Shown: positions 185 through 56,822 of the stretch, one piece after another
Layout of the letters: each line of letters begins with the position of its first letter
How positions within the stretch are numbered: the stretch's first letter is position 1
Notes under the pieces: generated by a model
Database searches by the model: none
What the model was told of the DNA's origin: nothing
What the model saw: only the letters and a program-made list of their open reading frames with translations
Position numbers and translations under genes: made by a program
DNA from: Candidatus Rifleibacteriota bacterium
GTDB taxonomy: Bacteria > Muiribacteriota > Ozemobacteria > Ozemobacterales > Ozemobacteraceae
Direction: 5' to 3'
Length of the DNA: 64,000 nt
Assembly (NCBI GenBank): GCA_015232575.1
Contig: JADFZL010000004.1
Location: 14,381-78,380, forward strand

Positions 185-212
185 CCGCGACAAGAAAAGA
201 CAAGATTTTTGT

Positions 213-517
213 CCGCAGATTACGCAGATTATGCAGATTTTCAAGCTTTAAGCTTAAAGAAGATAAAGAGATTAAAAAGATTAAAGGAGATTGTAGTAAT
301 GTTGCTGAGCAGATATAAAAAACACGATTTTCTCTCAGTTTTTCTCTGTGCCTCTGCGTGAGATATATCTTTTCTTCAGCAGCGTGCTACAGTGTCGATT
401 AAAGGGCACTGGGGTGTGAAATAAATCATCCATATCTCATCTTTAATCTTAATCTGCGAAATCTGTGTAATCTGCGGATAGCTTTTTCTTTTATCTTGAA
501 TCTTGAATCTTTACATC
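213..517. repeat. Intergenic repeat, copy 1. Inverted 27-nt arms sit at 213-239 (ccgcagattacgcagattatgcagatt) and 452-478 (aatctgcgaaatctgtgtaatctgcgg). Phased AGATT/AATCT pentamers run on both sides. An internal block reads ttttctctgtgcctctgcgtgagat..cttttcttc.
   Basis: Direct comparison with 41880-42140 and 48354-48420. The same arms, the same flanking aaaagacaaga and the same AATCTT runs recur. Confidence 0.6.
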
Positions 518-9548: not shown

Positions 9549-12527
9549 ATGTTTACTGATAAGCTTAGTCTTGAAAATCTTTCATTTCCTTCTGAAAAAA
9601 TTGCTATTACATGGCATTCTGGAGAAGGTGTCTGGAAAGACATTACTTATGGTGAATTCCGAACTCAGGTTGACAAGATGTCTGCTTTGCTTCGTGAAAA
9701 AGGCATTGGTCGGAAAAATTCAGTAATATTCCTTGGTGAGAACCATCCTTTCTGGCTCCAGGCTTTTTTTGCACATATTAAGAATTCATCTGTCGTTATT
9801 CCGGTAGATGGTTCTGTTACCGACGAGAGACTGCTTGATATAGTAGCTCTTTCCGGAGCATCTGGAATTTTTGCAAGCCCGCTGCAACAGGCAAGACTCG
9901 AAAAAATCTGGAACAGGTTTCCGGAAAAATTTGCTATTTTCAGAAATGAACTGGAACCATGGCTTGAAAAAAATGGAAAAGCCGTTGAGCCGGCTAGTGT
10001 GCCCGATGGAACAGCGGCGATATTTTTCACTTCAGGTACAACCGGGCAGCCCAAGGGAATAGTTCTTTCAGAAAAAGCTCTGGCTGCATCAATTGTAATA
10101 GGTACAGGACTTGGAAATATTGGTTCTTCTGATATCATGTTGACTTTACTTCCGTTTACTCACGTATACGGAATGGTCGATGCCGGATTTGTTCCGCTTG
10201 CAACTGGTGCAAGAAACATTCTGATGTCTTCCTTTAATCCGATGGAAGTTTTTCAGGTGATTTCAAAATTCAGAGTGAATTTCTTAAATGTGGTTCCAAG
10301 ACTTGCTGAAGTTATTCTTGCCGTTCTCACGCAGAGTGACAGTAAATTAGCAGGCTTGAACCTTTTTGTTGGCGGTGCATCATGTAAGCCAGATGTAATA
10401 CGAATGCTTCGAAAGCGTGGCATAAAGACTTCCTTCGGGTTTGGAATGACCGAAACCGCGGGTGGAATACTCGCCAATGAAGGAGAACCGGCTGAATCGG
10501 TCGGAATTCCTCCGGAGGACATCGAAATAAAAATCGACAACCAGAGCGATGGATTTGGTGAAATACTTATTAAATCACCAACAATGCTGACCTGCGTTCT
10601 TAACAACGAGGAAGAAACAAAAAAAATCTTTCATAATGGCTTTTTGAAAACCGGTGATCTTGGAATGATTGATTCAAACGGTTATGTTCACATTAAAGGA
10701 CGCCTGAAAGACGTAATTGTATGCGGCGGCGGAATGAATGTATATCCCGATGAGCTTGAGGCAAGGCTTGAATTGTCACCATTCGTTGAGGAATATTCCG
10801 TGACGGTTATGAAAGAGGACGGTTATGAATTTCCAATGCTTGTTGTTAAGCCGCGTGCAGCCTTTTTTAAAGATAGACCAACTCTGGACATTCAGGAATA
10901 TATTTCAGAGCAGGTAAAAAAACAGATTTCAAGATGGGCTGAATGGGAAAGATTCAGAAAGATTATGATTTCTGAGAAGCCTCTTCCAAGGTCTTTCAAC
11001 CAGAAAGTCCAGAGACACGTTCTTTCAGCAATGTTTTCCCGAGACAATGAAGAAATTGCACTTTCTGAAAATAAACAAAAAACGGCTTCAGATAACAGTT
11101 CTTTAAATAAATATTTTGAAAAAACTGTGAAATTCCTTGCGCATTTCCTTTCCAAAAAACATGAGCAAGCGTTTTTGAAAGCATCCCTTAACGATTTCCC
11201 CCAACTGGACTCTCTCGGAAAAATAGCTTTGCTTGCCGCTTTTGAAAACCGCTTCAAGATCAGAATACCTGGAATTCAGATTGAAAATGAAAGCAGTATT
11301 GAAAATACAGCGTTTCTTCTTTCTAAATATCTCGAAAACAATGCTGGAACTTCAGCCGTTGAAACAGATAAAGATGTAAACTTTCTTCCGCCGGAAAGAG
11401 ATAATTCAAAAGATGCCGTTTCGGCAAGGCTTGATTTCCTGAAAGACTTATCTGGTGATGAACTTGAAGAATTTTCGCCGCCGGTTGCTGCATCGCATCT
11501 GACCGGAAACATCGAAGGTTTTATCGGTTATGCACAGATCCCAACGGGAATTGCCGGACCATTGCTTGTAAATGGAGACCATGCGAAAGGTGAATTTTAC
11601 CTTCCTCTTTCCACGACAGAAGGCGCACTTGTTTCATCAGTTTCAAGAGGCGCAAAATTGCTTACTTCAGCCGGAGGAGTAAACGTAAAAATCATTTCTG
11701 ATGGAGTCATACGGTCTCCTATTTTTATGTTCAACTCGTTGGGTGATATGATCAAATTTAAAGAATGGTTCGAAAATTCTTTAGATAAAATTAAATCTGT
11801 GGCAGCAAGTACTACACGCCACGGACGGCTGAAGGAAGTAGAAATGCTTCCGCTTGGGACTTCGCTTGCAATTAGAATGGTGTATTACAGCGGAGATGCT
11901 TCGGGACAGAACATGTGTACTATTGCGACTCAGAAAGTACTTGACTATGTTGCAGCAGAATATAAAGGTCCAATGACCGACTTATTTCTTGAATGCAATA
12001 TTTCAGGTGACAAAAAGATTAATGCGTTTAATTTTATCCGGGGTCGCGGAAAGAAAGTCATTGCTGAGGCGCGTATTCCGGGAATACATATCGAAGATAT
12101 ACTTCACACAACACCTGAAAGAATGGTTAAAAACTGGGAAATGTCCGTTCTTGGAAGTTTCCAGGCACACTCTTTCGGAATTCAGGCACACTATTCGAAC
12201 CTGTTGACCGCATTGTATCTGGCAACCGGCCAGGATGCAGCCTGCTCAGCAGAGTCGTCAGCCGGAATAACGCATCTTTCATTGTCAGGAAGCGATCTTA
12301 AAGCAAGTGTTACTGTCCCCGGAATAATGGTAGCCACGGTTGGAGGAGGGACACGCCTTGCCACTCAGCAGGCATGTCTGAGAATACTCGGGTGCACCGG
12401 AGAAGGAAAAGCAGGAAAGCTTGCAGAAATTACAGCAGCAGGAATACTTGCAGCCGAACTTTCACTGATTGGTGCAATGGCAGCCGGCGATTTCTCCAGT
12501 GCACATGCCAAATACGGAAGAAAGTAA
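9549..12527 (+). CDS. Tri-domain fusion. An AMP-dependent synthetase (fatty-acyl-AMP-ligase-like) is followed by an acyl carrier protein domain and then a class-I HMG-CoA-reductase-like catalytic domain.
   Basis: Adenylation motifs FTSGTTGQPKG, GFGMTETAG, TGDLG and GRLKDVIVCGG. Phosphopantetheine attachment motif LDSLGKIALLAAF. HMGR motifs IGYAQIPTGIAGPLLVNGD, LPLSTTEGALVSS, GDASGQNM, ATVGGGTRLATQQACLRILG and ...AAELSLIGAMAAGDFSSAH, which carries the catalytic His. RBS GGAG lies upstream. Confidence 0.85.
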   Translation: MFTDKLSLENLSFPSEKIAITWHSGEGVWKDITYGEFRTQVDKMSALLREKGIGRKNSVIFLGENHPFWLQAFFAHIKNSSVVIPVDGSVTDERLLDIVALSGASGIFASPLQQARLEKIWNRFPEKFAIFRNELEPWLEKNGKAVEPASVPDGTAAIFFTSGTTGQPKGIVLSEKALAASIVIGTGLGNIGSSDIMLTLLPFTHVYGMVDAGFVPLATGARNILMSSFNPMEVFQVISKFRVNFLNVVPRLAEVILAVLTQSDSKLAGLNLFVGGASCKPDVIRMLRKRGIKTSFGFGMTETAGGILANEGEPAESVGIPPEDIEIKIDNQSDGFGEILIKSPTMLTCVLNNEEETKKIFHNGFLKTGDLGMIDSNGYVHIKGRLKDVIVCGGGMNVYPDELEARLELSPFVEEYSVTVMKEDGYEFPMLVVKPRAAFFKDRPTLDIQEYISEQVKKQISRWAEWERFRKIMISEKPLPRSFNQKVQRHVLSAMFSRDNEEIALSENKQKTASDNSSLNKYFEKTVKFLAHFLSKKHEQAFLKASLNDFPQLDSLGKIALLAAFENRFKIRIPGIQIENESSIENTAFLLSKYLENNAGTSAVETDKDVNFLPPERDNSKDAVSARLDFLKDLSGDELEEFSPPVAASHLTGNIEGFIGYAQIPTGIAGPLLVNGDHAKGEFYLPLSTTEGALVSSVSRGAKLLTSAGGVNVKIISDGVIRSPIFMFNSLGDMIKFKEWFENSLDKIKSVAASTTRHGRLKEVEMLPLGTSLAIRMVYYSGDASGQNMCTIATQKVLDYVAAEYKGPMTDLFLECNISGDKKINAFNFIRGRGKKVIAEARIPGIHIEDILHTTPERMVKNWEMSVLGSFQAHSFGIQAHYSNLLTALYLATGQDAACSAESSAGITHLSLSGSDLKASVTVPGIMVATVGGGTRLATQQACLRILGCTGEGKAGKLAEITAAGILAAELSLIGAMAAGDFSSAHAKYGRK

Positions 12528-14248: not shown

Positions 14249-14310
14249 TAATAAAAATACCTGCCCCCTTTCTCTGGCTTTATGCTGGAAGAGGGGGCAG
14301 GTATTTTTAT
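14249..14310. terminator. Bidirectional rho-independent terminator between convergent genes
   Basis: A-run, a GC stem acctgcccccttt / aagagggggcaggt, then a T-run tattttta. Read on the minus strand it is again a hairpin followed by a T-run. Confidence 0.65.
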
Positions 14311-14338
14311 TGATCAATGATTTGTTTGCTGGAGGCTT

Positions 14339-19506: not shown

Positions 19507-19706
19507 GAAGCCTTACTGTTAAATCCTTAAAAGGCGCTTGTCATGTTTTACGTTTTGTGATAACAAGGTAAAAACAGATCGGATTTATAGATGAAAAGAG
19601 AGTTTTCTTCATGGTATAAGAAATATTAAAATACTTGATCAACTTTCTAAAATTTTTGATGTATGCAAATGGCAGGGAAAAATTTTATTTTGATGTGGAG
19701 GTTTAT

Positions 19707-20240
19707 ATGTATAAATCTTTTCTTACTATTTTTCTGGTGGCAGTGGTAGTTTTGATTTCCACGCCACTCTTTTCAACTCAGATTCTTTACATTGCTCCTG
19801 ACGGATTGACCATGAAATTGTCTCTCCAGAGCGATCCGGCGAAACAAGATCTGGTCCTGCTCACAGGAAATGTTGAGGGTAACCTTGGAAATATCAGTAG
19901 TATTACCATGCAGTTTTTCGGCTCTCCTGGAATTACGGTGGAACCAGCTTCAGCTTCTATTCCGCGAATTTCAAAAGGTGAAGCCGTTAAATTCGAAATC
20001 AGGGTAAAGGGCTTGGCTGAGCTTTCTGGAAAGGCAACTTCGTGGGTAAAGATGCGTGCAGATTATGTTCCAGATTATAAAACTTTAATTGAGCAGGTTA
20101 AAAACGATGAACAGGAATATCCTGACCAATATGCACGTCAGGATCTTCTTCAGGGCATTATGGAAGGGCAGGAAAAAACTGAAACAATTTCTCAGGTAAT
20201 TGGGTACCTGCTTTCGACCAACGAATCAAAAGATCGCTAA
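19707..20240 (+). CDS. Small secreted protein, 177 aa. Cassette member A1, paralog of 22641-23174.
   Basis: Start chosen at the ATG with GGAGG 6 nt upstream, inside the ORF-track call. Signal peptide. About 85% identical to A2. Confidence 0.65.
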   Translation: MYKSFLTIFLVAVVVLISTPLFSTQILYIAPDGLTMKLSLQSDPAKQDLVLLTGNVEGNLGNISSITMQFFGSPGITVEPASASIPRISKGEAVKFEIRVKGLAELSGKATSWVKMRADYVPDYKTLIEQVKNDEQEYPDQYARQDLLQGIMEGQEKTETISQVIGYLLSTNESKDR

Positions 20241-20252
20241 AGGAGCTGAATC

Positions 20253-21773
20253 ATGAAATTAAGAAGTCGCATTTTAAAGCTCATTTTTGTCTTTTCATAC
20301 TGCCTCCTTTGCTGTCCTTTGCTTTTTGCCGGCGAAGTTAAGTTTGAAATTGTAAAACTTCTAAAAGTTCTTGGTTACAAATACGTTAAAGGCGAGGAAA
20401 ACTGGCAGGATAAAATAGAAATAGGGGTTGGCGATTCGGAAAGATATTTGACCGAAAAATTTCAATACTCAAGTCGTGATGAAGTTGAAAAGCTCTTTAG
20501 AGAATGGTCGGGTGGTGAACTTACCAAAGAACAGAAAAAGACTCTTGAAGTGATCGATTGCGTAAAAGGCGAAATGATAAAAAGTCTTATGGCTCTGGGG
20601 AAAAAAAACCTGGGTAAAGATGATTGCGACATTGTCGTGAAAATATTTGACACATCTCTGGTTGAAAACGAAAGGGGAAAAGATAAAGTATTAAAAGAAT
20701 TCTGGCCGTGTTTCTCCAGAAACACCAGCAGTATTACCATTCCTACTGCTTATTTTGCTACTAAGAAGTATCCTGGAACAGTGCTTGTACATGAACTTGC
20801 TCACTCGGTAGATAAAGCTGTACATGAAGATAATGCTTACGGGCCTGATGGTTCTCACAGTGTTAATGAGATTACCAAGCCGATAGCAGCATTCAAAGAG
20901 GGCTGGGCTATATATAACGCATATGATGCTTTTCCCGGCGATTATGGAATTCCCTTCAATCTCAAGGAAGATGGAGTGAAAATCGAATCTGCTGATAAAG
21001 GAAAATACGATAACTACGCTGGAGAAAAAGTCACTGGAAAAGAAATTCTCTGTGTCGAGGGTGTCAATGCCAAGATTATGCAGCAAATTGCATCTGAATA
21101 CGGCCGGGAAAAACTTGAAAAAGCTTTTCTCGAATGCAATTCAAAAGGGACCACCATCAAGAATCTTTTTTCAAGTTTTGTAAAACTTAATCCCGATTCA
21201 ACAAAGAAAGTATTCGAGATACTGGATAAAGAAACATTAGGAATTCTTAAAGACAGTGAAATAACAGAAATTTTAGGAGATGGAAAAACAGTAAAGAGCC
21301 TTTTATCTGCCCGCAAACAATCTCCACTAAGCAGGGAAGCATCTGATAGAATTCAGTCCTTCATAGAAGATTATCAGAAAACTTTGAAAAATCTCATGGC
21401 ACAACCCCAGCCTCTTTCTGAAGAAGATGCAAAGATGCTTCAAAAGTATAAAAGATTAATAGCAGGGGAGATTGATCGTTTTAAGTCCAGTATTGCCGAA
21501 ATACAAAAGATTACCCGTAACAAAAAAGCTATGGCTGAATTTTCCCCGGCACGGCAAGCTGAATTAAAGGCGGATGCTAACTCGTTTAAGGAAATTTCTA
21601 AAAAGCAAAACGAATTTATGGAAACTTTTGAAAAATTTATGAAAGTCAGCGACAATAATAACCAGATGATTAAAAATAATGGTGTTGATGACTCCAATAT
21701 TAACACCACCCAACCAGAAGCACAGGAGCAGCCTGCTGAAGGCACTTCCGAAAAGGGGCTTTTTGGAAATTAG
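20253..21773 (+). CDS. Secreted HExxH...E metallopeptidase-like protein. Cassette member B1, paralog of 23187-24698.
   Basis: Signal peptide. VLVHELAHSVD followed about 30 aa later by FKEGWA, the pattern of a gluzincin-type zinc site. The C-terminal 28 aa are near-identical to B2. Confidence 0.65.
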   Translation: MKLRSRILKLIFVFSYCLLCCPLLFAGEVKFEIVKLLKVLGYKYVKGEENWQDKIEIGVGDSERYLTEKFQYSSRDEVEKLFREWSGGELTKEQKKTLEVIDCVKGEMIKSLMALGKKNLGKDDCDIVVKIFDTSLVENERGKDKVLKEFWPCFSRNTSSITIPTAYFATKKYPGTVLVHELAHSVDKAVHEDNAYGPDGSHSVNEITKPIAAFKEGWAIYNAYDAFPGDYGIPFNLKEDGVKIESADKGKYDNYAGEKVTGKEILCVEGVNAKIMQQIASEYGREKLEKAFLECNSKGTTIKNLFSSFVKLNPDSTKKVFEILDKETLGILKDSEITEILGDGKTVKSLLSARKQSPLSREASDRIQSFIEDYQKTLKNLMAQPQPLSEEDAKMLQKYKRLIAGEIDRFKSSIAEIQKITRNKKAMAEFSPARQAELKADANSFKEISKKQNEFMETFEKFMKVSDNNNQMIKNNGVDDSNINTTQPEAQEQPAEGTSEKGLFGN

Positions 21774-22550: not shown

Positions 22551-22640
22551 TTGGTGACAGTTAGGTCAAGTCTATGAGGTTTTTTCGTTAGGACTGATTG
22601 AGTTGTTACTGAAAAACTTTATTTCAATTTGGAGGATTGC

Positions 22641-23174
22641 ATGAATAAATCTATTCTTTTTATTTCTCTGTTTGCAGTGGTTGTTTTGATTGCTGTTCCT
22701 GTCTATTCAAGTCAGATTCTTTACGTCGCTCCCGATGGGCTGAATATGAAATTGTCTCTGCAAAGTGACCCGGGAAAACAAGATCTCGTTCTCCTTACCG
22801 GAAAAGTGGAAGGCAATCTTGGAAATATCAGCAATATTTCAATGCAATTTTTCGCTTCTCCGGGAATTACGGTAGAACCAGCTTCAGCGACTATTTTCAG
22901 TATTTCAAAAGGCGAAGTGGTCAAGTTTGAAATCAGGGTTAAGGGTCTCGCTGAGCTTGCAGGAAAGGCAACTTCCTGGGTAAAGATGCGTGCCAATTAC
23001 CTTCCGGATTATAAAGCTTTAATTGAACAGGTTAAAAACGATGAACAGGAATTTCCTGACCAGTATGCACGTCAGGATCTTCTTCAGGGCATTATGGAAG
23101 GGCAGGAAAAAACTGAAACAATTTCTCAGGTAATTGGGTACCTGCTTTCGACCAACGAATCAAAAAACCGGTAA
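22641..23174 (+). CDS. Small secreted protein, 177 aa. Cassette member A2.
   Basis: GGAGG RBS upstream of the ATG at 22641. Paralog of A1. Confidence 0.65.
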   Translation: MNKSILFISLFAVVVLIAVPVYSSQILYVAPDGLNMKLSLQSDPGKQDLVLLTGKVEGNLGNISNISMQFFASPGITVEPASATIFSISKGEVVKFEIRVKGLAELAGKATSWVKMRANYLPDYKALIEQVKNDEQEFPDQYARQDLLQGIMEGQEKTETISQVIGYLLSTNESKNR

Positions 23175-23186
23175 AGGAGCAGAATC

Positions 23187-24698
23187 ATGAAATTCGGAAA
23201 TCATATTTTCAAGCTCATTTTTATTTTTTCATACTGCTTACTTTGCAGCCAATCGCTTTTTGCCGGTGAAGTGAAGTTCGAAATTGTAAGACTTTTGAAG
23301 AAAGTTGATTCAAAATACCTGAAGACGCCAGGAGAAGAGATTTCACAGGGGCGCTCGGAAAGATATCTGAGCGAAACTTTTCAATGCTCCAGCAAGGATG
23401 AGGTTGAGAAACTCCTGAAAGAATGGTCAGGAGGAGAACTTGATAATGCCCAGAAAAAGATTGTTGAGATGGTGGGATATGGTAAAGATAAATTGACTAC
23501 AGATCTTATGACTTTGGGGAAAAAAAACAAGGGAAAAGATGACCGTGACATCATTGTGAAAATTTATGATTCATCTCTGGTTGAAAATGAATTAGGAAAA
23601 AAGTTTTTTATGAAAGAATTCTGGCCAAGTTCTTCTGGAGATACAATAAAGTTTCCTATTGCCTATGTCAGCAGCGTTGGCGGTAACCCCAGCAAAATTC
23701 TAGTGCATGAACTTTCCCACGCAATAGATAATAACCGGCGTGAAAGTGGCTCTTACGGTCCAGATGGTGACCATTCTCCGAGCGAGATTACCATGCCACG
23801 CTCAGCATTCGTAGAGGGCTGGGCTGAATATAATACGCTCTATGCTTTCCCCGGAAAGGATGGTGATGCATCCAAAGGCTTTGAAACAGTTCTCAATGCT
23901 GGAGTAAGAATTGAATCAAGTAAAGGAAAATATGATAAATATTCCGCGGAAAAAGTGACTGGAGAAGAAATTCTCAGTACTGAAGGTGTCAATGCTTTGA
24001 TTCTTCACAAAATTTCAGCAGAATTTGGTCGGAAAAAACTGGAAAAGGCTTTTTTAGACTCCAACTCAAAGAAAACGACTATCGGTGACTTTCTTTCAAG
24101 TTTTGTAAAACTCTATCCAGATTCGTTAAAAAAAGTTTTCAACATCCTGAATAAAGAAACATTTGGTATTCTCAGCGACAGTAAAATTACAGAAATTCTA
24201 GGAGATGGAAAAACTGTTGAAACTTTTTTAAAGAATAGGAAACAGCCCGCTTTCAGCAGAAATGCATCTGAAAAGATCCTGGTTTCAATCAGCGAAGACA
24301 GGAATACTATCAAAACCATTATGGAGAAACCTCAGCCTATCTCTGATTCTGATAAAGACACACTTCAAAAAGCTAAAGAGCAATTGGCAAAAAAAATGGC
24401 AGATTATGAAACCTGCGTTTCTGGAATAATTGAGTTAATGCAAAACAAAGAAGCCCTTAAAGAATATTCTCCTTCACGGGATGCTGAGCTTCGGAGTTAT
24501 GAGGTATCCGCCAGCGGGAATATCAAAAAACAAAAGAAATTTATGGATTCGGTTGACAATTTTTTGTTAGAGAACGAGAAAAATAACCTGCCAATTTCAA
24601 AAATAGATGTTGATGATTCCAATATTAACACCACACAACCGGAAGGTCAGGAACAGCCTGTCGAAGGAACTTCCGAAAAAGGGCTCTTTGGAAATTAG
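23187..24698 (+). CDS. Secreted HExxH...E metallopeptidase-like protein. Cassette member B2.
   Basis: ILVHELSHAID ... VEGWA. The same spacing to the preceding gene as in cassette 1. Confidence 0.65.
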   Translation: MKFGNHIFKLIFIFSYCLLCSQSLFAGEVKFEIVRLLKKVDSKYLKTPGEEISQGRSERYLSETFQCSSKDEVEKLLKEWSGGELDNAQKKIVEMVGYGKDKLTTDLMTLGKKNKGKDDRDIIVKIYDSSLVENELGKKFFMKEFWPSSSGDTIKFPIAYVSSVGGNPSKILVHELSHAIDNNRRESGSYGPDGDHSPSEITMPRSAFVEGWAEYNTLYAFPGKDGDASKGFETVLNAGVRIESSKGKYDKYSAEKVTGEEILSTEGVNALILHKISAEFGRKKLEKAFLDSNSKKTTIGDFLSSFVKLYPDSLKKVFNILNKETFGILSDSKITEILGDGKTVETFLKNRKQPAFSRNASEKILVSISEDRNTIKTIMEKPQPISDSDKDTLQKAKEQLAKKMADYETCVSGIIELMQNKEALKEYSPSRDAELRSYEVSASGNIKKQKKFMDSVDNFLLENEKNNLPISKIDVDDSNINTTQPEGQEQPVEGTSEKGLFGN

Positions 24699-38481: not shown

Positions 38482-40491
38482 ATGCGCCGTTTGTATGTAA
38501 TTGTTCTTGCTTCGGTTGTTCTGCTCGGAGGTCTTCCGATTAATGCAGCACCGAGCCCATTCGAAGAGAACAACACAAAAATAAATCTTAACCAACAGGT
38601 TTCGGCCACATCCGGAACAACACAGGATCCAAATGCTATTTCCCCGCAGTCGGTTGATCAGTTGCTTGTTCAAGTTTCTGCCGGCAATGCCCTTTCTGGC
38701 CAATACGGCGGAAATCATGTAATCAAACATGCTATTATCAAAGGTTCTGTCTTTCTGAAAGACGAAACCGGCGGTGATTATGAGCGCGTAAGACTTATTG
38801 ACAGAATCTTTTCGCAGCATGGCTGCAAGTTGACAAAACAGCAGAAAAATCCGAAGGAATCAGGCAACTTCTTCAACAAGAAAAGATGGATGGAAGCTAC
38901 TTACGAATTTGAGGGTAAAGATTATGTAGTTACTGCAATTATTGGTTACTACTCAGGCAAAAAACTTGCCGACGTTTCCCCCGAATCTATTCCAACAGAG
39001 CCAGACCTTGCTGAAGCAGTAGCTCTTGAAAAAAGAGCAGCCGAAGATGAAAAAGCCATTCTTGCATGGGAATTTGAACTTGACAAACTGATTGTTGAGC
39101 TTCCACAGAAGGGCGCTTTTGATTTCAGTGGCAAGAACAGAATTAAGGCCAGAATGGAAGAAATCAACAATACCCTTATTCCAAATAAGATGAGTGCTAT
39201 TGCCCAGGCGAAACAGCAGGCTGTCAGTAAGCTTAACGCGCTTGCAGTGAGCTATCAGAACAAGGGTGATTATGCTCAGGCACTTGCTTACTATAAACTT
39301 CAGGGAATTAATGATAACGCGACCAGAATTAACGCAGGCGATTGTTATCAGGCACTGCAATCTTATGATTCAGCTATTGCAATGTATTCAGCTGTCAGTC
39401 CACAGACTGAAACCTCGGTTCTTAAGGTGGCAGATTGCAGACACGCTCAGGGTAAAGATGCTGAAGCCGCAGCAAAACTTATGGAAGTCTTGCAGAGTTT
39501 CAACAACTCAACCGAAGAGCAGGCTGCTCTAAGAAAGATCGACGAATGGGGTATTCTCACCAGTCAGCCAGCCCTTGCACCTCAAATCAGCGATATTTAC
39601 CTGCGGAAAGCATTCATAAATGCTGGAAATACCTCTGCAGCAGCAGCTGCCGCAGCTGATTACAAACGCGCTTGTGAGTTGAAAGCAGCTGGAAATGGTG
39701 CTGAAGGCTCCAGACAGATTGTCGCCGGATACCAGGCTGCAGTAAACAAAGATAACCAGGATATTAATAACGCACGAATCGCCGCTGACAGCCGATTCAA
39801 CAGGGAACGCGAAAATGCAAGAATTTCTCTTGTGTCAGCAGAACGCAATTACGACAATGCTATGATAAGAGCTCGTGTTCAGTACAACGAAGAAGTTCGT
39901 TCCGTTGAGTCAAGACTCAGCTCAGCACGTTCAAGACTTTCTTATCTTCAGAGTCATCCTCCTGTGACACCTCCCAGCACTGGTGGAACTGATCCATACG
40001 GTGGTTCAACCAAGCCTTCAACTGGTGGTTCCTCAACTGATCCATACGGCGGCTCGACCAAGCCTTCAACCGGTGGCTCCTCTACAGATCCATACGGCGG
40101 ATCAAGCAAGCCTTCAAACAGCGGTTCAAGCACAGATCCATATAATGCCGGGACAGACCCATATTCAGGTTCTAGTGGAACAGACCCGTATTCAGGCGGA
40201 ACCGGTGGTTCTTATGAATATCAGCTTTCCCAGGCACGTGCAGAAGTTTCAAGGCTTGAGAGAGAATTAAGTTCACTCAGATATGATCAGGCTGGTTACA
40301 TTGCCAGAAGAACAGCAATTGAGGGTGCAGCGCTTCAGAATGCACAGAGCAATTACAGAAGATACGATCTCAGCAAAAAAGATGCGTATATCGAAAACGA
40401 CAGCGCAGTTTCAGCTGCAAGAAGCAATCTTGCATCTCACCAGCGTGCGCTTTCTACAACTCAAAGACTGGCTGCTGCAAACGGTTTCTGA
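38482..40491 (+). CDS. Secreted coiled-coil-rich protein carrying (S/T)[11 protein letters not shown] tandem repeats
   Basis: Signal peptide. RBS AAGGAGG upstream. Repeats at 39979-40210. Confidence 0.6.
39979..40210 (+). repeat. In-frame 48-nt tandem repeat. About 3 good units plus degenerate ones, encoding [16 protein letters not shown].
   Basis: Read directly from the sequence. Confidence 0.7.
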
Positions 40492-41879: not shown

Positions 41880-42140
41880 TAAAAAAGACAAGACAAGAGT
41901 TTTTTCCGCAGATTACGCAGATTTTCAAGATCAAGATCAAGATTGTAAGATCTTGATTTTGGATTTTAGATTCAAGATTTGATGTATGAGATTTTTTGGA
42001 TTAGGAAGAGATTGTGACAGTGTTGCAGAACAGATACAATTATTGGATAACAATGCGTGCATAGGCACTTCTGAAAATGTAGAATCTGTTTTTCTCTGTT
42101 TTTTTCCGCGCCTCTGCGTCTCTGCGTGAGATCGTTCTTT
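41880..42140. repeat. Intergenic repeat, copy 2. It has the aaaagacaaga flank, the ccgcagattacgcagatt arm, phased AGATT pentamers and the ttttctctg..cctctgcgt..ctgcgtgagat..cttttcttc block.
   Basis: Aligned by eye to copy 1. Confidence 0.55.
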
Positions 42141-42159
42141 TCTTCTGATAAGATTTTTT

Positions 42160-42247: not shown

Positions 42248-45200
42248 ATGAGGAGAAGTAGCATATTTCGTGTGCTGATTTTTTTGGTGTATCTGTTGAG
42301 TTTACAGGTTCACCTTCTGGCGGGTATTGAAAATTTAAAATGTACCATTACCGAACCAGCAGATACCGTCGGAAAGAAATTTAATTCTGGTGTAAGTGTT
42401 AAGTTGAATGCCAGTTGGGCAGGGGTAGCTACGCCTCCTTTTTCTGCGAGCTTTTTTTCCTCATCCGGGGCAGCGTCAAACGCACTTGGAACAACCGTTA
42501 CAAGTGGAAACAGCGCTGATTTTGTCACAACTGGCTCATCATTGGGCGCTGGGCAGAAGGGCTTCAAAGTAGAAGTTTATGAGACCTCAATACCAAATGC
42601 CACAATGTTGTCAGCAGCTTCTGACAAGAATATCGAAATCGACCTTATTCCACCTGCAATTACCGTTTCTCTTGATAACGGCTCTGTCTTTTCCCCGGGT
42701 ACTGGTTTTAATGTAGTAAAATTCACCGTTAGATCAAGCAAAAATGTTCAAGGTGTTCCTGATGTTACTATTTCTCCGGAAATTGCAGGTGCTTCGCCTG
42801 CTCCCGACGGAACGCCTACCGAAACAACTTTCAGATATACTCTTCAGCTTCCAACAAATGTTGTTGCAGGTGCTTATTCAATAAGAGCAGTCTGCAAAGA
42901 TACGACTCTTCCTCTCGATACAGCTAACTCCGGAAGCGGACAGACAGGTTTTACTGTAAAAAGCGATGGTCCTCAACCACCGACTGTAACCGTTTCAGAA
43001 CCAGTTTCTCCAATACAGCAAAAAAACTTTGTGGTGAAAGGGAAAATTACTAATGGAATGGTGAAACTTTCACTTCACGAAGGTGCTACGAAGATATCAG
43101 ATGCCGTCATTAACGGACTTGACTGGACTGCCACCGTTGCCAGCACTACTGAGGGTGAGCACAGATACACTGCAAGGGGTGCTGATGCTCTTGGGAACGT
43201 TTCCCCGGATTCTGCTGAAATCATCGTAAAGGTAGATATTACTCCACCTGCACGCGGAGTTCTTGTACAGCCGCAAAGTCCGACATCATCAGCAAAAATA
43301 AACATATCTGGAACATCTGCTGTTGATGCACTGAACAACGGAGTAAATTCTCCACCCGTTAAAGTTGGGCTGTATGCTATGGACGGGACAGAGATTGGTT
43401 CTGTTTCAGCAAATCTCGATGGATCGTTTACCTTTCTGAATGTGAATCTCTCTGATGGTGATAACCTGTTTTATGTAGTTACAGAAGATTCTGCTAATGG
43501 TCCTCCGGGAAACAGATCGACACCTTCTGTGCCTATAAGAGTTTTCCGTGACAATTCAGGTTCAACCGTTGCAACAGTTTTGATCGGATCATCCCAACTT
43601 GCATCTCAGCCAATTCCTTTAAGCGCAGACACCTGGCTGACAGCAGGAAATTACGGAGTTAAGATTGATTTTACGAAGGATATGGACGCCTCGTCTAAAA
43701 CTGCAATTTCCTACACACCTTTGAATGGAACTGAGCAGGTAAGCAATAACGGCTCCTGGATAGCATCAAGATCATTTTCGGGCATTATTACCATTCCAGG
43801 CGGACAATCTGCAGTTTACGATGGTCTGGCACCGGAACTGAAAATTTCTGCTGCAAAAGACATTGCAGGGAATGTAATGGCTCCACATACTATCCCGACT
43901 CCGTTTAATATTGATACTAACCCGCCCGTGACTGTAATGGATTCAATGGATACTTTATTTGTTGCAAGTGGAGCTACTTCAGTTACTATCAAGGGTTCCT
44001 CAAGCGATGCCGGCTCTGGTGTTGGTTATGTTGAAATTGCCTGGCAGCTATATTCAGGCGGAACAATTTCTTCACAGTCTGTTCCGATTTTTAATGGCGC
44101 GAATGCTTCCTGGACAGCTACCTGGGACGTTTCTACCCTTCCCGCCGGATATTACAAATTGTGGGCTATCGCTGCAGATCGTTCCAAACCAAATCCTAAC
44201 AGGGAAGCTATGATTCCAACAGGATTCAGGCTTGTTGCAGTTGACAGAGATGCGCCTTTAGTAACACGCGTGAGTATTGATGACCTTATTAAAGATATTA
44301 ATGACATGTATACCGGCACGACAGTGCCAGTTATTGCTTCGTCTGTGACAAAGCTCACCGCTGTTTTCTCAGATACCAGCGGTTGGGGAATTGATTTTTC
44401 CAGAACTGTGTTTACACTTGTACATCAAGGAAGCAGCACAAATATCGCTGGAAATTATGCCAACAACGGAACAGATACAATGTTTTTCACTTTTCCGCAG
44501 TTATCGCAGGCTGGAACATACACAGTATCAGTGAATCCGTTTGATAAAGCTGGAAATTCCATGCCACTTGTAGCAACAAGAACATTTGTTATCGACAACG
44601 GCGGACCCGTGGGAGTAAATTTTGAGCCTGTTGCAGGCATTTATGCTAATAATACCAATCCCGCAATTGCCACAGATCAGGTCTGGGCTTTTATTGATGA
44701 CCGTGAGGCTGATTATTCAAGTTCGACAATAGAGGTTGTCTATAATGGAAACACCACTGGACTTCAATTAAAGAGTGCCTCAACGACAGCCCTGGTCTGG
44801 GATTTCACCGGAGATTCTGCTACTCATACTTCCGATCAGAGCATCGATGGAAGATATAACATTACCGTAGTTCCATGGGATATTTTCGGAAATCGTGGAA
44901 ATGCAGTAAATTCACACTTCTTCCTTGATACACGGGCTCCGGTTGTTACCCAGGCTGACCCAGCGTCTTCATCCTGGAATGGTTTGTCGATGAGAACAAT
45001 AAAAGCCGGTGTTTCAGATGCTCCAAAGGATCATGTTACTTATGGCGGAGCAGCAGTTGCCAAAGATGCATCATGGCAGAATTCAAATGGCAGCGGAATC
45101 AATCAGTCTTCTGCATCATTCAGCGCAAATGTTGAGTTTCTCAGTAAAACTCTGCCTGGCGGGTTTTCTTCTGCTAACATGATGGAAATTACCATGCCAG

Positions 45201-47635
45201 CTATAGCAGTGGCAGATACTAATCCACCTGGATGGGGCACAATTACTGCAAATATCAAATTAGATGATAATGTAAACAGTCTCAGAGCTAACACTGCTTC
45301 ATACACGTGGAATTTATTCATGGATTACATGAGACCTGTAATGACTTTTTCAAAACCTCTTTCAAGCGGAAAATATTGTAAGAATAGTATCAATATTGGC
45401 GGTTCTGCAAGCGACAGAGGAGCTGCAACAAGTAATCTCTACGTTCAAAAGGTTGAAGTTTCCAAGGACCAGACAACTTACAATGCAGCAGACTTTGCGA
45501 TGGGAAAAATCGGCAGCTGGACCTATAAAATGGATATTTCTGAAATGACTGACGGTGCACATAAGTTCTATGGAAGGGCTTATGACAGAGGCAACAATAT
45601 GTCAAACCCAGATAATGCTTATGCTGATGCCGGTGTTGAAACAGTTGTTACATTTACTGTCGATAGAACTCCACCAGCACCACCGACTCCGATTATTCCA
45701 CTTAGTGACAGTATTACAAACAATCGTGGACAGCGATTTAAATGGAACAAAGTAACAGATGGTGATCAGTATCTGTTTCAGGTTGCTGATGATGCAAGTT
45801 TTAATAATGTTATCAATAACCTTATACAGAGCGGAGATGCCAGCTATACTGGTCTTCTCGGTCAGGTCACTTATCTTCCTGAAGCATCTTTTTCTGTGCC
45901 CAAAGACGGAACATTCTATTGGAGAGTTGCTTCCGTTGAACTTTGCAATGATGGTTATAACATCAGCAGTTTTTCAACAACAATGAGGTTTACAGTCGAT
46001 ACAGTCAAGCCAAAAATTCTTGAAGTGCAGCCGACACCATCGACTGGCAACAAGATCACAACCGGCATGGTAACATTTACTGTCCGGTTCAGCGAAGCCA
46101 TGGATACAACAATTCTTCCGACGGTTTCTATTACATCAGCCGGCGGTCAGCTCATGCTTATAGAGACAGTAACTTTCAAAGATAATACCTGGACGGGCAC
46201 AACCGTAATTCCAAAAGATACAAGTGCATTGTATGATGGATTGGCTGTGATTCAGGTAACCAACGCCAAGGATCTCGCCACAAACCAGATGGAAAATGAT
46301 TCGACAAACACAGTTGTAATCAATACTGGTCCTGCTTTTGAAACAAAATTGTTTTCAAATCCGGCTCATGAGTATGAAATTATGATTGTGACAAGATCAA
46401 GCGAAGCTCTTCAGGCGCCTCCAACATGTTCTGTTACACAGGGCGGAGAGAAGGTGCCGGTTGTAATGAACTTTCTGAAAGAAAAGTTCTATACCGGAGG
46501 CTATCGAATTGATCCAGAGCATTCTGGCAAGGCTTATATTGATATCAGCGGCAGCGATTTGTACGGTATGACTGGCAAAGGTTCTGTTGAATTCAACGTT
46601 GCCGGGGTAGATCTGGAAACAAGTATAAGATGGATTTCTGAGGATGCAGCGAGCGAATTGCTTATTGGCTCGGGAACATTCAGAAACAAAGCTTCTATTT
46701 ACATGCTTCCCAAAACAGGAAGTGATGCTGTTAACCCGCTGGCATCGAAAAAAGCTTCTGTAAAACGTGCATCTGCTGTTAAAGATTTGTCAGAACTTTC
46801 AAAGGAAGAGCTGGTTGAATTAAAAGCACTCGAAGAACTTGGGCCTTCCTCGGTAAAAGTCTCGAGAAAGATGCGTTTTACTACAAATTACGAGATTCCA
46901 GCGGAAATGAATATTGATCCAAAGCGTGTTGGAATTTATCGATACTCTTCAAATGGCTGGACTTACTGCAAGAGCGAAATGAAAGGCAACAAAGTCTCTG
47001 CCGAACTTGATGGGCTTGGTAAGCTTTCGTTAATGGCAGATCTCAAGGCACCCGTAATGGCTTCCATTTTCCCGTCACAGGGAGAACGGCTTGAAGATGC
47101 CGATTTTACAATTGAAGGTAAGATTTCTGATAAAGGTGCAGGTTTGCTTCTTGAATCGGTAAAGATAAGCATTGATGGGAATCAGGTTTCTGATGTTACA
47201 GTCGAAGAAGACGGAACTTTCAGATATGCGCCCAGAAAGACACTTCCAAAAGGTGATCATGTTCTTGAAATAACTGCAAGTGACAAGGCTGGAAATCAGA
47301 TTGTTACATCAATTACCTTCGTAGCGCCTGGTCCGTTTGCAATTGAAGATTTGAAAGCTTATCCAAATCCTGCAAGAGGCGATGCAATGTGGTTTGCATA
47401 CAATTTTGGGCAGAGAGCTGAGGAAATCAAGCTGAAAATCTATGATGTAGCCGGACACGAAGTCACTTCCTTTGAGACGTTTGATTTTAACGCGCTTTCG
47501 ACCGGAAAACTTAAATGGGATTTAAGAAACGATGACGGAAAGAGAGTTGCTAACGGAGTGTATCTTTATAAAATTGAAGCCATCAAAAATGGGCAGAAGA
47601 TCAAAAGCCGCGGAAAACTGGCGGTTTTGAGATAG
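42248..47635 (+). CDS. Giant (1795-aa) cell-surface protein with many Ig-like repeats and a C-terminal T9SS-type sorting domain
   Basis: Signal peptide. C-terminus YPNPARGDAMWFAYNF...IKLKIYDVAGHEV...GVYLYKIEAIKNGQKIKSRGKLAVLR. Paralog of 48539-56143. Confidence 0.8.
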   Translation: MRRSSIFRVLIFLVYLLSLQVHLLAGIENLKCTITEPADTVGKKFNSGVSVKLNASWAGVATPPFSASFFSSSGAASNALGTTVTSGNSADFVTTGSSLGAGQKGFKVEVYETSIPNATMLSAASDKNIEIDLIPPAITVSLDNGSVFSPGTGFNVVKFTVRSSKNVQGVPDVTISPEIAGASPAPDGTPTETTFRYTLQLPTNVVAGAYSIRAVCKDTTLPLDTANSGSGQTGFTVKSDGPQPPTVTVSEPVSPIQQKNFVVKGKITNGMVKLSLHEGATKISDAVINGLDWTATVASTTEGEHRYTARGADALGNVSPDSAEIIVKVDITPPARGVLVQPQSPTSSAKINISGTSAVDALNNGVNSPPVKVGLYAMDGTEIGSVSANLDGSFTFLNVNLSDGDNLFYVVTEDSANGPPGNRSTPSVPIRVFRDNSGSTVATVLIGSSQLASQPIPLSADTWLTAGNYGVKIDFTKDMDASSKTAISYTPLNGTEQVSNNGSWIASRSFSGIITIPGGQSAVYDGLAPELKISAAKDIAGNVMAPHTIPTPFNIDTNPPVTVMDSMDTLFVASGATSVTIKGSSSDAGSGVGYVEIAWQLYSGGTISSQSVPIFNGANASWTATWDVSTLPAGYYKLWAIAADRSKPNPNREAMIPTGFRLVAVDRDAPLVTRVSIDDLIKDINDMYTGTTVPVIASSVTKLTAVFSDTSGWGIDFSRTVFTLVHQGSSTNIAGNYANNGTDTMFFTFPQLSQAGTYTVSVNPFDKAGNSMPLVATRTFVIDNGGPVGVNFEPVAGIYANNTNPAIATDQVWAFIDDREADYSSSTIEVVYNGNTTGLQLKSASTTALVWDFTGDSATHTSDQSIDGRYNITVVPWDIFGNRGNAVNSHFFLDTRAPVVTQADPASSSWNGLSMRTIKAGVSDAPKDHVTYGGAAVAKDASWQNSNGSGINQSSASFSANVEFLSKTLPGGFSSANMMEITMPAIAVADTNPPGWGTITANIKLDDNVNSLRANTASYTWNLFMDYMRPVMTFSKPLSSGKYCKNSINIGGSASDRGAATSNLYVQKVEVSKDQTTYNAADFAMGKIGSWTYKMDISEMTDGAHKFYGRAYDRGNNMSNPDNAYADAGVETVVTFTVDRTPPAPPTPIIPLSDSITNNRGQRFKWNKVTDGDQYLFQVADDASFNNVINNLIQSGDASYTGLLGQVTYLPEASFSVPKDGTFYWRVASVELCNDGYNISSFSTTMRFTVDTVKPKILEVQPTPSTGNKITTGMVTFTVRFSEAMDTTILPTVSITSAGGQLMLIETVTFKDNTWTGTTVIPKDTSALYDGLAVIQVTNAKDLATNQMENDSTNTVVINTGPAFETKLFSNPAHEYEIMIVTRSSEALQAPPTCSVTQGGEKVPVVMNFLKEKFYTGGYRIDPEHSGKAYIDISGSDLYGMTGKGSVEFNVAGVDLETSIRWISEDAASELLIGSGTFRNKASIYMLPKTGSDAVNPLASKKASVKRASAVKDLSELSKEELVELKALEELGPSSVKVSRKMRFTTNYEIPAEMNIDPKRVGIYRYSSNGWTYCKSEMKGNKVSAELDGLGKLSLMADLKAPVMASIFPSQGERLEDADFTIEGKISDKGAGLLLESVKISIDGNQVSDVTVEEDGTFRYAPRKTLPKGDHVLEITASDKAGNQIVTSITFVAPGPFAIEDLKAYPNPARGDAMWFAYNFGQRAEEIKLKIYDVAGHEVTSFETFDFNALSTGKLKWDLRNDDGKRVANGVYLYKIEAIKNGQKIKSRGKLAVLR

Positions 47636-47639
47636 TCTT

Positions 47640-48293
47640 ATGGAGACAGAAAAAATGGAAAAGAAAAACTTAATATTTGTCTTTCTGGTTCCGGTGTTAA
47701 TGATGCTGAACGGATGTGGTGGTGGTGTTGCCGGCGAAGGCAGCAATGACTATCCGCAAACCAGCGGCACGACAATTATCAGGGCGAATTCTTTCAATGA
47801 TAAGGGCTGGGACCTGATTTCAAAAGCTCAGTATCAAAGTGCAATAACCTCTTTTAATCAGGTGCTGGCAGATAATCCGACAGCCCAGGAAGCCTGTGAG
47901 GCAAACTCAGGGCTTGGATGGGCACGTGGTCGAATAGGCACTATGAAGGACGGTATGGAGTGGTTTGCAAAAGCAGTTGATGGTTCCAATGATGCAAAAG
48001 TTGGACTGGCTGCTGCTTATGTTCAGTTGGGTTCAAAAAGTGATCTCGAAAAAGCTGTTGATTTGCTCTATACAAAGCTAGGTGGAGAAAATCCGCACTT
48101 TCATTATACCACCTCAAGACCTACCGGTGTAAGCGATGCCGAATGTCATGCTCTTCTAGCTTTTGCGTTTGCTGGAATCGGAAAAAACGATGAAGCGACA
48201 ATTCAGCTTGATTATGCAAAGGAATTGAATCCAAATTGGCAGAATACAACAATTGACCAGATAAACAATGTCGTAGAATTCCTTAATAAATAA
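47640..48293 (+). CDS. TPR-like lipoprotein. Partner of giant protein 1 and paralog of 56148-56822.
   Basis: Lipobox MMLNGC. Starts 5 bp after the giant-gene stop. Confidence 0.65.
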   Translation: METEKMEKKNLIFVFLVPVLMMLNGCGGGVAGEGSNDYPQTSGTTIIRANSFNDKGWDLISKAQYQSAITSFNQVLADNPTAQEACEANSGLGWARGRIGTMKDGMEWFAKAVDGSNDAKVGLAAAYVQLGSKSDLEKAVDLLYTKLGGENPHFHYTTSRPTGVSDAECHALLAFAFAGIGKNDEATIQLDYAKELNPNWQNTTIDQINNVVEFLNK

Positions 48294-48353
48294 TATTGCT
48301 GTCATTTCGACTAAATTTGACCTTTCGGAGATCTCTCATTCTTTTGGTCACTT

Positions 48354-48420
48354 AATCTGCGTAATCTGTGTAATCTGCGGACAGCTTTTAATCTTTAATC
48401 TTGAAATCTTGTAATCTTTA
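48354..48420. repeat. Intergenic repeat, copy 3 (aatctgcgtaatctgtgtaatctgcgga followed by phased AATCTT units)
   Basis: A 28-nt arm nearly identical to 451-478, followed by the same AATCTT array. Confidence 0.55.
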
Positions 48421-56143: not shown

Positions 56144-56147
56144 TTTT

Positions 56148-56822
56148 ATGGAGACAGACAAAATGCAGAGAAAACAGAAAAAAGTGCAGAAAAAAGGGCT
56201 ATTTGTTCTCATTTTTATTCCGGTAATGATGATGCTGAGCGGGTGCGGTGGAGGTGTTGCCGGCGAAGGTGGAAACCAGTATCCACAGACCAGCGGCACA
56301 ACAATTGTCAGGGCAAATTCTTTCAATGATGAAGGCTGGGACCTCATTTCAAAAGGTCAGTATCAGAGTGCAATAGCGCTTTTTAATCAGGTTCTTGCAG
56401 ATAATCCGACAGCTCAGGAAGCCTGCGAGGCGAATTCGGGTCTCGGGTGGGCACGCGGTCGGATAGGAAGTCTGAAAGATGGCATGGAATGGTTTGCAAA
56501 AGCTGTTGATGGCTCAAACGATGCAAAAGTTGGTATGGCTGCTGCTTATATTCAGATGGGTTCGAAAAGCGATCTGGAAAACGCCGTTGATTTGCTCTAC
56601 ACGAAACTCGGAGGAGAAAATCCGCACTTTCATTATACCACTTCGAGAGCTACCGGAGTAAGCGATGCAGAATGTCATGCTCTTCTTGCTTTTGCGTTTG
56701 CCGGAATCGGAAGGAGCGATGATGCAACCATTCAGCTTGATTATGCAAAGGAATTGAATCCAAACTGGCAGTCAACGACGATTGAACAAATTAACAATGT
56801 CGTCGATTTCCTGAATAAATGA
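56148..56822 (+). CDS. TPR-like lipoprotein, partner of giant protein 2
   Basis: Lipobox MMLSGC. 5-bp gap to the upstream gene. About 85% identical to 47640-48293. Confidence 0.65.
   Translation: METDKMQRKQKKVQKKGLFVLIFIPVMMMLSGCGGGVAGEGGNQYPQTSGTTIVRANSFNDEGWDLISKGQYQSAIALFNQVLADNPTAQEACEANSGLGWARGRIGSLKDGMEWFAKAVDGSNDAKVGMAAAYIQMGSKSDLENAVDLLYTKLGGENPHFHYTTSRATGVSDAECHALLAFAFAGIGRSDDATIQLDYAKELNPNWQSTTIEQINNVVDFLNK

Follow-up and report, generated by a model that had tools for sequence, protein, structure and literature searches.

What are the three related intergenic repeats in a 64-kb window of a Candidatus Riflebacteria genome (contig JADFZL010000004.1), and do the two that precede giant surface-protein genes belong to the regulation of those genes? 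A first-pass annotation of this window (here always the whole 64,000-nt stretch) had described the three loci as a family of helically phased AATCT/AGATT pentamers with 27-bp inverted arms, and had proposed either an array of protein-binding sites serving envelope genes or a miniature inverted-repeat transposable element (MITE). We find that the arms in the window have the same sequence as the inverted arms that bound genes of the GxxExxY family in other genomes. Our preferred reading, to which we give a probability of about 60%, is that the three loci represent one full gene-less copy (locus 1, ~192-515) and two partial copies (locus 2, 41885-42145; locus 3, 48325-48420) of a non-autonomous hairpin repeat derived from GxxExxY cassettes.

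The arms of the window match those of GxxExxY cassettes

Locus 1 has a left arm, CCGCAGATTACGCAGATTATGCAGATT, at 213-239, where it was first annotated, and a right arm, AATCTGCGAAATCTGTGTAATCTGCGG, at 451-477, one base away from the 452-478 first given. With the adjoining T or A each arm spans 28 nt; the two are 89% complementary and stand 211 nt apart. Each consists of three tandem 9-bp units (CGCAGATTA) at 212-239, inverted at 451-478, and every unit contains a CGCAGAT heptamer core. The inverted 27-mers are well beyond chance, with 3 matches in the window at up to 3 mismatches and none in 100 shuffled sequences, while GCAGATTNNGCAGATT at up to 2 mismatches has 9 matches against 0.92 expected, 7 of them within the three loci. 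AGATT/AATCT pentamers are dense in the three loci (24 to 39 per kb versus 4.2 per kb window-wide), but their helical phasing was not borne out: spacings are 9 bp inside the arms and 6 to 10 bp elsewhere, which describes tandem 9-mers and 6- to 8-mers and not a 10.5-bp turn. Tandem Repeats Finder reported 9-bp arrays at 214-239, 451-476, and 48353-48379, and periods of 9 and 18 at 254-292, where the pentamers are spaced 9 to 10 bp apart.

When the small open reading frames (ORFs) beside arms were clustered over the 120 loci listed from a genome scan (numbered with an L outside the window), the sole recurrent family was GxxExxY (L016, L033, and L095, with a remnant in L088), which matches NCBIfam TIGR04256 at E values of 1e-41 to 1e-43 and also PF13366. 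The gene lies between both arms in L095; in L016 it reads into the right arm at its 3' end, with only the 3' arm present and the contig ending on the 5' side; and in L088 a 39-residue C-terminal remnant sits between two arms. Starting from the protein, a profile search recovered at least 8,000 GxxExxY clusters, and in 78 of the best 120 of these the termini are translations of the arms, with N-termini PQITQISQI or MTQI.. translating CCGCAGATTACGCAGATTTCGCAGATT and C-termini NLRESAKSAD or SKSAKSA translating AATCTGCGnGAATCTGCGAAATCTGCGGAT. Identity is 55 to 75% between GxxExxY proteins labelled Thiosymbion, Terriglobia, Sideroxydans, Dehalococcoidia, Chlorobi, and Coatesbacteria. Gene callers run many of these ORFs into the arms, and artefactual termini (PQITQISQI, NLRESAKSAD, SKSVKSAQSADNP) have entered public records.

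All eight gene-bearing loci examined (L095, L016, L134, L142, L152, L156, L157, and L159), from genomes of 33 to 69% G+C, have C[GA]CAGAT arms flanking a GxxExxY gene of ~125 amino acids, and in L134, L152, L157, and L159 both arms are present. The window arms are 89% identical to an arm of the L142 cassette over 37 nt. All four arms in the window (212-239, 451-478, 41905-41923, and 48354-48381) likewise fit the cassette-arm pattern of two to four tandem 8- to 10-bp units with a C[GA]CAGAT core and an outer (W)AT-CCGCAG end; they form an inverted complementary pair at locus 1, and loci 2 and 3 are single-armed. The L142 cassette (1451-1921) lies between sdhA and sdhB, at the identical place in ten samples, and the L156 cassette (1173-1654) between alaS and ruvX-mltG, with its start codon inside the left arm; both leave 25 to 75 nt to the next start codon. 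In the predicted fold of the L142 cassette the entire ORF is enclosed by a stem of ~31 bp that the arms form, which could be how the sdh and alaS-ruvX operons accommodate a cassette; Rfam gave no match in this cassette at permissive thresholds. GxxExxY genes further away in the family (L129, L130, L131, and the complete gene of L088) have similar arms made of other 8- to 9-mers (CGCGAAAAG, CGCAGATAA, CACGAAAAN, and CGCAAAGA). Truncated C-terminal GxxExxY remnants (..NFG.KSLQYKR..) attached to the right arm in L157 (~1700-1830) and L088 (4273-4410) fit an origin of gene-less copies through decay or deletion of the interior.

A predicted nuclease of the Cas4/RecB type

The AlphaFold model of GxxExxY has a predicted local distance difference test score (pLDDT) of 92.9, and the nearest folds in the PDB are Cas4 SSO0001, lambda exonuclease, MGME1, and the nuclease domains of AdnAB/AddAB. 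Its invariant residues (E27, D67, E77, and K79) are consistent with a PD-(D/E)XK active site, and GxxExxY is predicted from this model to be a minimal Cas4/RecB-like PD-(D/E)XK nuclease; a sequence search recovered no solved homologue. The papers found that mention GxxExxY, PDDEXK_3, TIGR04256, or PF13366 give no function for it, and a 2012 survey lists the family as "Unknown" with "multiple transfers" (PMC3424549).

Distribution and conservation of the arms

An exact scan for CCGCAGATTANNCAGATT over one genome per species recovered at least 120 loci. Because a pattern with 16 fixed bases would match ~280 times by chance in 596 Gb, counting both strands (our own arithmetic), the raw count is no proof, and we took as evidence only the extended pattern (a third unit, a partner arm, or association with a gene). 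The general arm form is (W)AT-CCGCAGATT-ACGCAGATT-NCGCAGAT, usually as an inverted pair around a spacer of 5 to 480 nt. Among the matches listed, a third unit is present in 80 of 145, an inverted partner lies within 500 nt in 66 of 145, and 49 form clean paired hairpins with a total length of 43 to 477 nt; the phyla in the record titles of these matches include Planctomycetota, Verrucomicrobiota, Acidobacteriota, Chloroflexota, Pseudomonadota, Bacteroidota, Nitrospirota, Spirochaetota, Desulfobacterota, Gemmatimonadota, NC10, and Lentisphaerota. By a crude ORF proxy the arms occur in convergent, divergent, and tandem contexts alike, and the gene-start rate at control positions is 40%. The elements begin with (W)AT before CCGCAGATT and end with AT(W) after AATCTGCGG, giving outer CCGCAG...CTGCGG ends, and none of 19 elements has a target-site duplication: flanks outside the inverted repeat are unrelated, and the AT/AT or AA/TT at the element ends belongs to the palindrome. 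In several genomes (L001, L059, L086, L087, and L101) the element is present more than once, either with one spacer common to the copies or in tandem arrays, and the window also has several copies. A full-text literature search for the arm strings found no paper describing them, and one for protein names of 23S intervening sequences found nothing relevant.

Viral contigs gave 113 matches, of which ~61 have the extended pattern, with chance matches in coding sequence given as the remainder and also as about a third of the hits. The IMG/VR contigs (L163-L262) hold ~60 genuine arm copies, many of them solo and near gene ends or starts, and no GxxExxY gene was found in these stretches. Arm matches in Segatella, Persicobacter, and Gemmatirosa replicons were without annotation, and the phage collection gave only chance matches. 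As a separate observation, the 476-nt hairpin spacer of L095, from Candidatus Thiosymbion oneisti, holds a single GGTTCATCCCCGCAGGCACGGGGAAC at 1700-1800, which resembles a type I-E CRISPR repeat.

Pairing between the arms was counted in a set of 44 hairpins and cassettes, each anchored by its outer ends, with 500 shuffles for comparison. Paired cells make up 88.7% of the total against 79.4% in the shuffles, and double-sided changes number 137 against 58.6, a value that none of the 500 shuffles reached; arm pairing is thus maintained by compensatory changes, as in L159, where CACCGATT is paired with AATCGGTG. Ten pairs of the heptamer core are invariant, whereas mismatches are frequent at the 1 or 2 bases that separate the units. 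G-U and A-C mismatches occur at equal frequency, which gives no sign of a preferred transcribed strand over the set as a whole. The core is conserved more strictly than pairing would require, and the protein subfamilies have different units; both would be expected if each nuclease recognises its own arms. Protein binding as first proposed for these repeats may survive in altered form: the invariant core suggests recognition by a protein, probably not a regulator but the nuclease of the cassette itself.

The window copies may relate to the gene-bearing cassette as REPINs (hairpin-forming pairs of repetitive extragenic palindromic [REP] sequences) relate to genes for REP-associated tyrosine transposases (RAYTs), or as MITEs relate to their parent elements. 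In such an arrangement the invariant heptamer units would be recognition sites for the cognate nuclease, which would spread or maintain the repeats, and gene-less copies would rely on a nuclease encoded elsewhere in the genome.

Structure and context of locus 1

Locus 1 folds, outer flanks included, into a long imperfect hairpin, at -112.4 kcal/mol (z, -8.0) for + strand RNA and -89.8 kcal/mol for - strand RNA, the + strand being favoured through two G-U pairs. The arms (212-239 and 451-478) pair in both the minimum-free-energy and the centroid folds, the flank at 192-211 pairs with its outer-right counterpart in the minimum-free-energy fold, and the repeats at 240-286 are predicted to pair with 425-450. 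The locus occupies the gap between two convergent genes, an ORF that ends at 184 and a GAF/HD-GYP gene on the minus strand (538-2370); the ORFs called within 184-537 are spurious read-throughs of the repeats. A hairpin between two convergent genes would be expected to stop or process both transcripts; the fold modelled here probably serves as a transcript end or as an RNase III-type structure. No terminator-like site or T-run follows the stem at locus 1, its spacer has no similarity to GxxExxY that would indicate a decayed gene, and Rfam gave no match at gathering score in the window, with only chance-level hits (E > 1) in 100-620. Elsewhere in the window a perfect 20-bp inverted repeat (AATAAAAATACCTGCCCCCT / AGGGGGCAGGTATTTTTATT, 14250-14311) between convergent genes resembles an ordinary bidirectional terminator, an example of a conventional gene end in the source genome.

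A second motif, of the form CTCTGCG..GTGAGAT-nnn-TCTTTTC, lies in the spacer of locus 1 (332-377) and in locus 2 (42090-42145). Its sequence CTCTGCGTGAGATNNNTCTTTTC recurs after tandem CTCTGCG(N) units in seven metagenome contigs of 51 to 69% G+C (L122-L128); it forms the right end of CGCAGAG-type hairpins in tandem arrays in L125, and it stands beside CACAGAT- or CACAAAG-type hairpins in L124, L126, and L127. The stretch at 332-377 has the appearance of a lone right arm from a hairpin repeat of the CGCAGAG type, and since the motif serves as a hairpin end in unrelated contigs, the window element appears to be a composite of two repeat families.

We also compared the orthologous HD-GYP loci of two other Riflebacteria (L161 and L162; protein identity, 73% and 68%), which keep the upstream synteny of a 505-aa ORF, YmdB, and HD-GYP. 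Neither has arms in the 3' intergenic region or within 9.8 kb, and one has an ordinary terminator hairpin in place of the element.

Loci 2 and 3 and the giant surface-protein genes

Alignment shows that the homology between loci 1 and 2 begins with the outer flank aaagacaaga, takes in the arm and the GAGATTGT..TGTTGC.GA.CAGATA block, and ends at CTCTG(T/C)G..CTCTGCGTGAGAT-nnn-TCTTTTCTTC, and that locus 3 aligns with the right third of locus 1, the AGCTTTT..ATCTTGAATCTT flank included (Table 1). The common flanks and internal block that had been noticed at the three loci were thus confirmed by repeat comparison and alignment. That the same arms recur at all three is correct as a statement of homology, but locus 2 keeps only a two-unit left arm and locus 3 only a right arm, and these half-copies cannot form the hairpin.

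The block of locus 2 ends 103 nt 5' of an ATG at 42248, and locus 3 sits 119 to 214 nt upstream of an ATG at 48539. Downstream of them are two tandem paralogous units (42248-48293 and 48539-56822), each a giant immunoglobulin (Ig)-domain protein followed by a tetratricopeptide repeat (TPR) protein, with DNA identity of 68 to 82% in blocks. The reported position upstream of giant genes is therefore accurate for loci 2 and 3, as half-elements before tandem paralogues, but not for the best copy, which lies between convergent genes. The internal block passes a sigma-70 consensus scan in its locus 2 version (TTGTGA-17-TACAAT at 42012-42040, pointing at the gene) and fails it in its locus 1 version, which offers a hint of a promoter role for this conserved block. 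Loci 2 and 3 are probably remnants that possibly contribute upstream sequence to the giant genes. They represent complementary parts of one element, and may be left from a copy that was disrupted when the giant-gene unit duplicated or may be independent truncated copies. The suggested tie to cargo genes of the type IX secretion system is not supported: the Por_Secre_tail (sorting-domain) hits of the giant proteins are below the Pfam cut-off, and the source is a metagenome-assembled genome of Candidatus Riflebacteria/Ozemobacteraceae, with an oligopeptidase F 77% identical to Ozemobacteraceae proteins, and not a Bacteroidota genome.

Table 1. Features of the three repeat loci in the window
Locus	Coordinates	Strand	Feature	Remarks
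1	192..211	+	Outer-left flank aagaaaagacaagatttttg	Common to 41885-41904; repeat comparison 87% over 47 nt; alignment
1	212..239	+	Left arm T-CCGCAGATT-ACGCAGATT-ATGCAGATT	Three tandem 9-bp units; matches 5' arm of GxxExxY cassettes L142 and L095
1	240..286	+	Degenerate A/G-rich AAGATT/GAGATT tandem repeats, inward of left arm	Tandem Repeats Finder
1	287..318	+	Conserved internal block GAGATTGTAGTAATGTTGCTGAGCAGATATAA	Homologous to 42005-42037; weakly promoter-like (TTGTAG-17-TATAAA)
1	332..377	+	Second motif: CTCTCAG/CTCTGTG/CTCTGCG units, then GTGAGAT and T-rich tail TCTTTTCTTC	Alignment
1	451..478	+	Right arm AATCTGCG-A-AATCTGTG-T-AATCTGCGG-A	Inverted copy of 212-239
1	479..515	+	Outer-right flank tagctttttcttttatcttgaatcttgaatcttta	Common to 48382-48420; Tandem Repeats Finder period 7 at 493-511
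2	41885..41923	+	Outer-left flank and two-unit left arm (TCCGCAGATTACGCAGATT)	Arm proper 41905-41923; without right arm
2	41924..42004	+	Expanded CAAGAT/AGATT repeats	Includes 14-pair hairpin at 41931-41962
2	42005..42145	+	Block GAGATTGT..CAGATACAA, 60-nt insert, then CTCTGCGTCTCTGCGTGAGAT-cgt-TCTTTTCTTC	Alignment
3	48325..48420	+	Right third of element: gagatctctcattctttt.., right arm AATCTGCGTAATCTGTGTAATCTGCGGA (48354-48381), outer-right AATCTT-rich flank	

The window holds another tandem paralogous set, an unannotated ORF pair duplicated ~2.9 kb apart (19635-21773 and 22629-24698; 72 to 79% identity). It also has two in-frame tandem repeats, a 48-bp unit in ~3 copies at 39987-40130 inside the ORF at 38482-40491 and a GAAACA hexamer in ~8 copies (18-bp super-unit) at 61854-61919 inside the ORF at 59042-63331, and a single 992-aa ORF at 9549-12527 that joins an AMP-binding (adenylating) domain to a complete HMG-CoA reductase domain.

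Alternative explanations

Several observations weigh against a gene-less derivative of GxxExxY cassettes. The 64-kb window has no GxxExxY gene by tblastn with three GxxExxY proteins and no transposase or RAYT among its scanned ORFs, and it is because no GxxExxY gene stands between the window arms that these copies would be gene-less derivatives. A GxxExxY gene stands beside an arm at only 4 of the 120 genome loci among the matches listed and at none of 100 viral-contig loci, so that most copies lie far from any nuclease gene, and solo arms, which are unable to form hairpins, are common. Part of the invariance of the core arises by construction, in that the pattern used to search the genome set fixes one arm, although the cassettes retrieved via the protein are without this search-pattern bias and have the identical core. 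The 211-nt spacer of locus 1 carries the second cross-phylum motif. At the orthologous HD-GYP loci the downstream neighbour differs in both relatives, which makes neither a clean empty site and the absence of the element there weak evidence; no pair of empty and filled sites was obtained. Mobility, and an interaction between the nuclease and the arms, are both points that we only infer.

The arms might instead be kept by the host as RNA structure, their stem ending or insulating transcription units or being cut by RNase III, and not be selfish at all. The position of locus 1 between convergent genes and its fold, far better than shuffles, speak for this, as do the cassettes that sit inside the sdh and alaS-ruvX operons without disruption, with arms enclosing the whole ORF, and the finding that a gene end reads into an arm within 70 nt in 45 to 54% of cases against 16 to 20% at random positions (by the crude ORF proxy). 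RNA structure alone, however, would not keep an identical heptamer core from 33 to 69% G+C; the balance of G-U and A-C mismatches favours no transcribed strand, locus 1 lacks a T-run after its stem and any terminator-like site, and solo arms are frequent. We consider host-selected structure unlikely as the primary explanation, and it is compatible with a cassette-derived repeat as a secondary effect of the same element.

A different selective account, the array of regulator or nucleoid-protein sites (or iterons) first envisaged for the envelope genes, draws on the two of three loci that lie 100 to 340 nt upstream of the paralogous giant genes, on repeated units with an invariant core, and on the promoter-like site in locus 2 that points at the gene. 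It is very improbable given that the best copy lies between convergent gene ends, that the two upstream copies are different halves standing before tandem duplicates, that the period is 9 bp and not a helical turn, that relatives are without the element at the orthologous HD-GYP locus, and that the same arms occur in arbitrary, unrelated contexts in at least 12 phyla and in viral contigs. A further possibility is that the arms are sites for some universal host factor, such as weak DnaA boxes: the element ends TTATCCGCA and TTATCCACAGATT resemble TTATCCACA, many ends read TTATCCGCAG, a few (L095 and L117) read TTATCCACAG, a perfect DnaA box, and the unit is 9 bp. Yet inner units match the consensus at only 5 or 6 of 9 positions, the consensus requires A in CACA where the common arm form has G, and other GxxExxY subfamilies use quite different units, which fits co-evolving pairs of protein and repeat and not one factor; we regard this explanation as scarcely credible.

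Comparison with known repeat systems

By analogy, the element is best described as most resembling REPIN-RAYT systems, with another enzyme fold and with tandem-nonamer arms. Like REPINs, it consists of short palindromic repeats in intergenic DNA, often paired in inverted orientation to give long hairpins, with many gene-less copies per genome; the repeats also flank a small nuclease-type gene, target-site duplication is absent, and each protein subfamily has repeats of its own. Unlike them, the enzyme is of the PD-(D/E)XK (Cas4/RecB-like) type and not an HUH/Y1 transposase (the window ORFs scanned contain no Y1/HUH RAYT domain), the arms are tandem 9-mers and not a single REP palindrome, and the arm sequence is common to several phyla, whereas REPs are lineage-specific.

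The MITE-like alternative in the first-pass annotation came close to the evidence, in that the loci are intergenic, multi-copy, inverted-repeat structures without coding capacity. With MITEs such as the Correia elements of Neisseria they share terminal inverted repeats, small size, the lack of an ORF, and multiple intergenic copies (here one full and two partial in 64 kb), and MITEs too may sit upstream of genes and form RNA hairpins. They differ in having no target-site duplication, no known DDE transposase parent, a highly variable spacer, and common solo arms. Gene-bearing forms do exist, and truncated gene remnants stand between arms or next to them (L088 and L157), but the protein encoded is not a known transposase.

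The intervening sequences of 23S rRNA genes, which carry S23p/four-helix-bundle ORFs, offer another parallel: their inverted repeats loop the insert out of the transcript, RNase III cuts the resulting stems, and the inserts are tolerated in essential units. Their protein family is different, and no copy of the arms was seen inside an rRNA gene. Iterons and regulator arrays likewise have tandem short direct repeats with a conserved core, but their units are 17 to 22 bp and not 9 bp, and the arms described here are inverted, have no replication gene or origin context, and are scattered over the chromosomes of many phyla. Integron attC sites, CRISPR arrays, and the ends of Tn7-like elements or insertion sequences were also considered and rejected on architecture, which here is two inverted 9-mer arms at scattered single loci without arrays.

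Implications

For the window itself, the practical message is that the repeat should not be taken as a regulator of the giant envelope genes absent direct evidence. More broadly, and only tentatively, GxxExxY genes with their tandem-nonamer arms may constitute an undescribed class of selfish or mobile cassette present in at least 12 phyla and in phage contigs, in which a nuclease of the Cas4/RecB fold would be cognate to a REPIN-like repeat, its subfamilies would have co-evolved with their arms, and the cassette would do no harm inside operons, its arms looping it out of the transcript; one copy in the window would then have been split or recombined around the tandem duplication of the giant genes. 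Such a class would raise the question of how near-identical 9-mers persist across genomes of 33% to 69% G+C.

If the cassette-derived reading holds, GxxExxY/PDDEXK_3, a family of thousands of clusters with no known function, would gain a testable role and a defined DNA partner, and there would be an explanation for a very widespread intergenic repeat whose sequence is often mis-translated as the termini of annotated proteins. It would also provide a second, independent partnership of nuclease and repeat of the REPIN-RAYT type, built on a PD-(D/E)XK scaffold.

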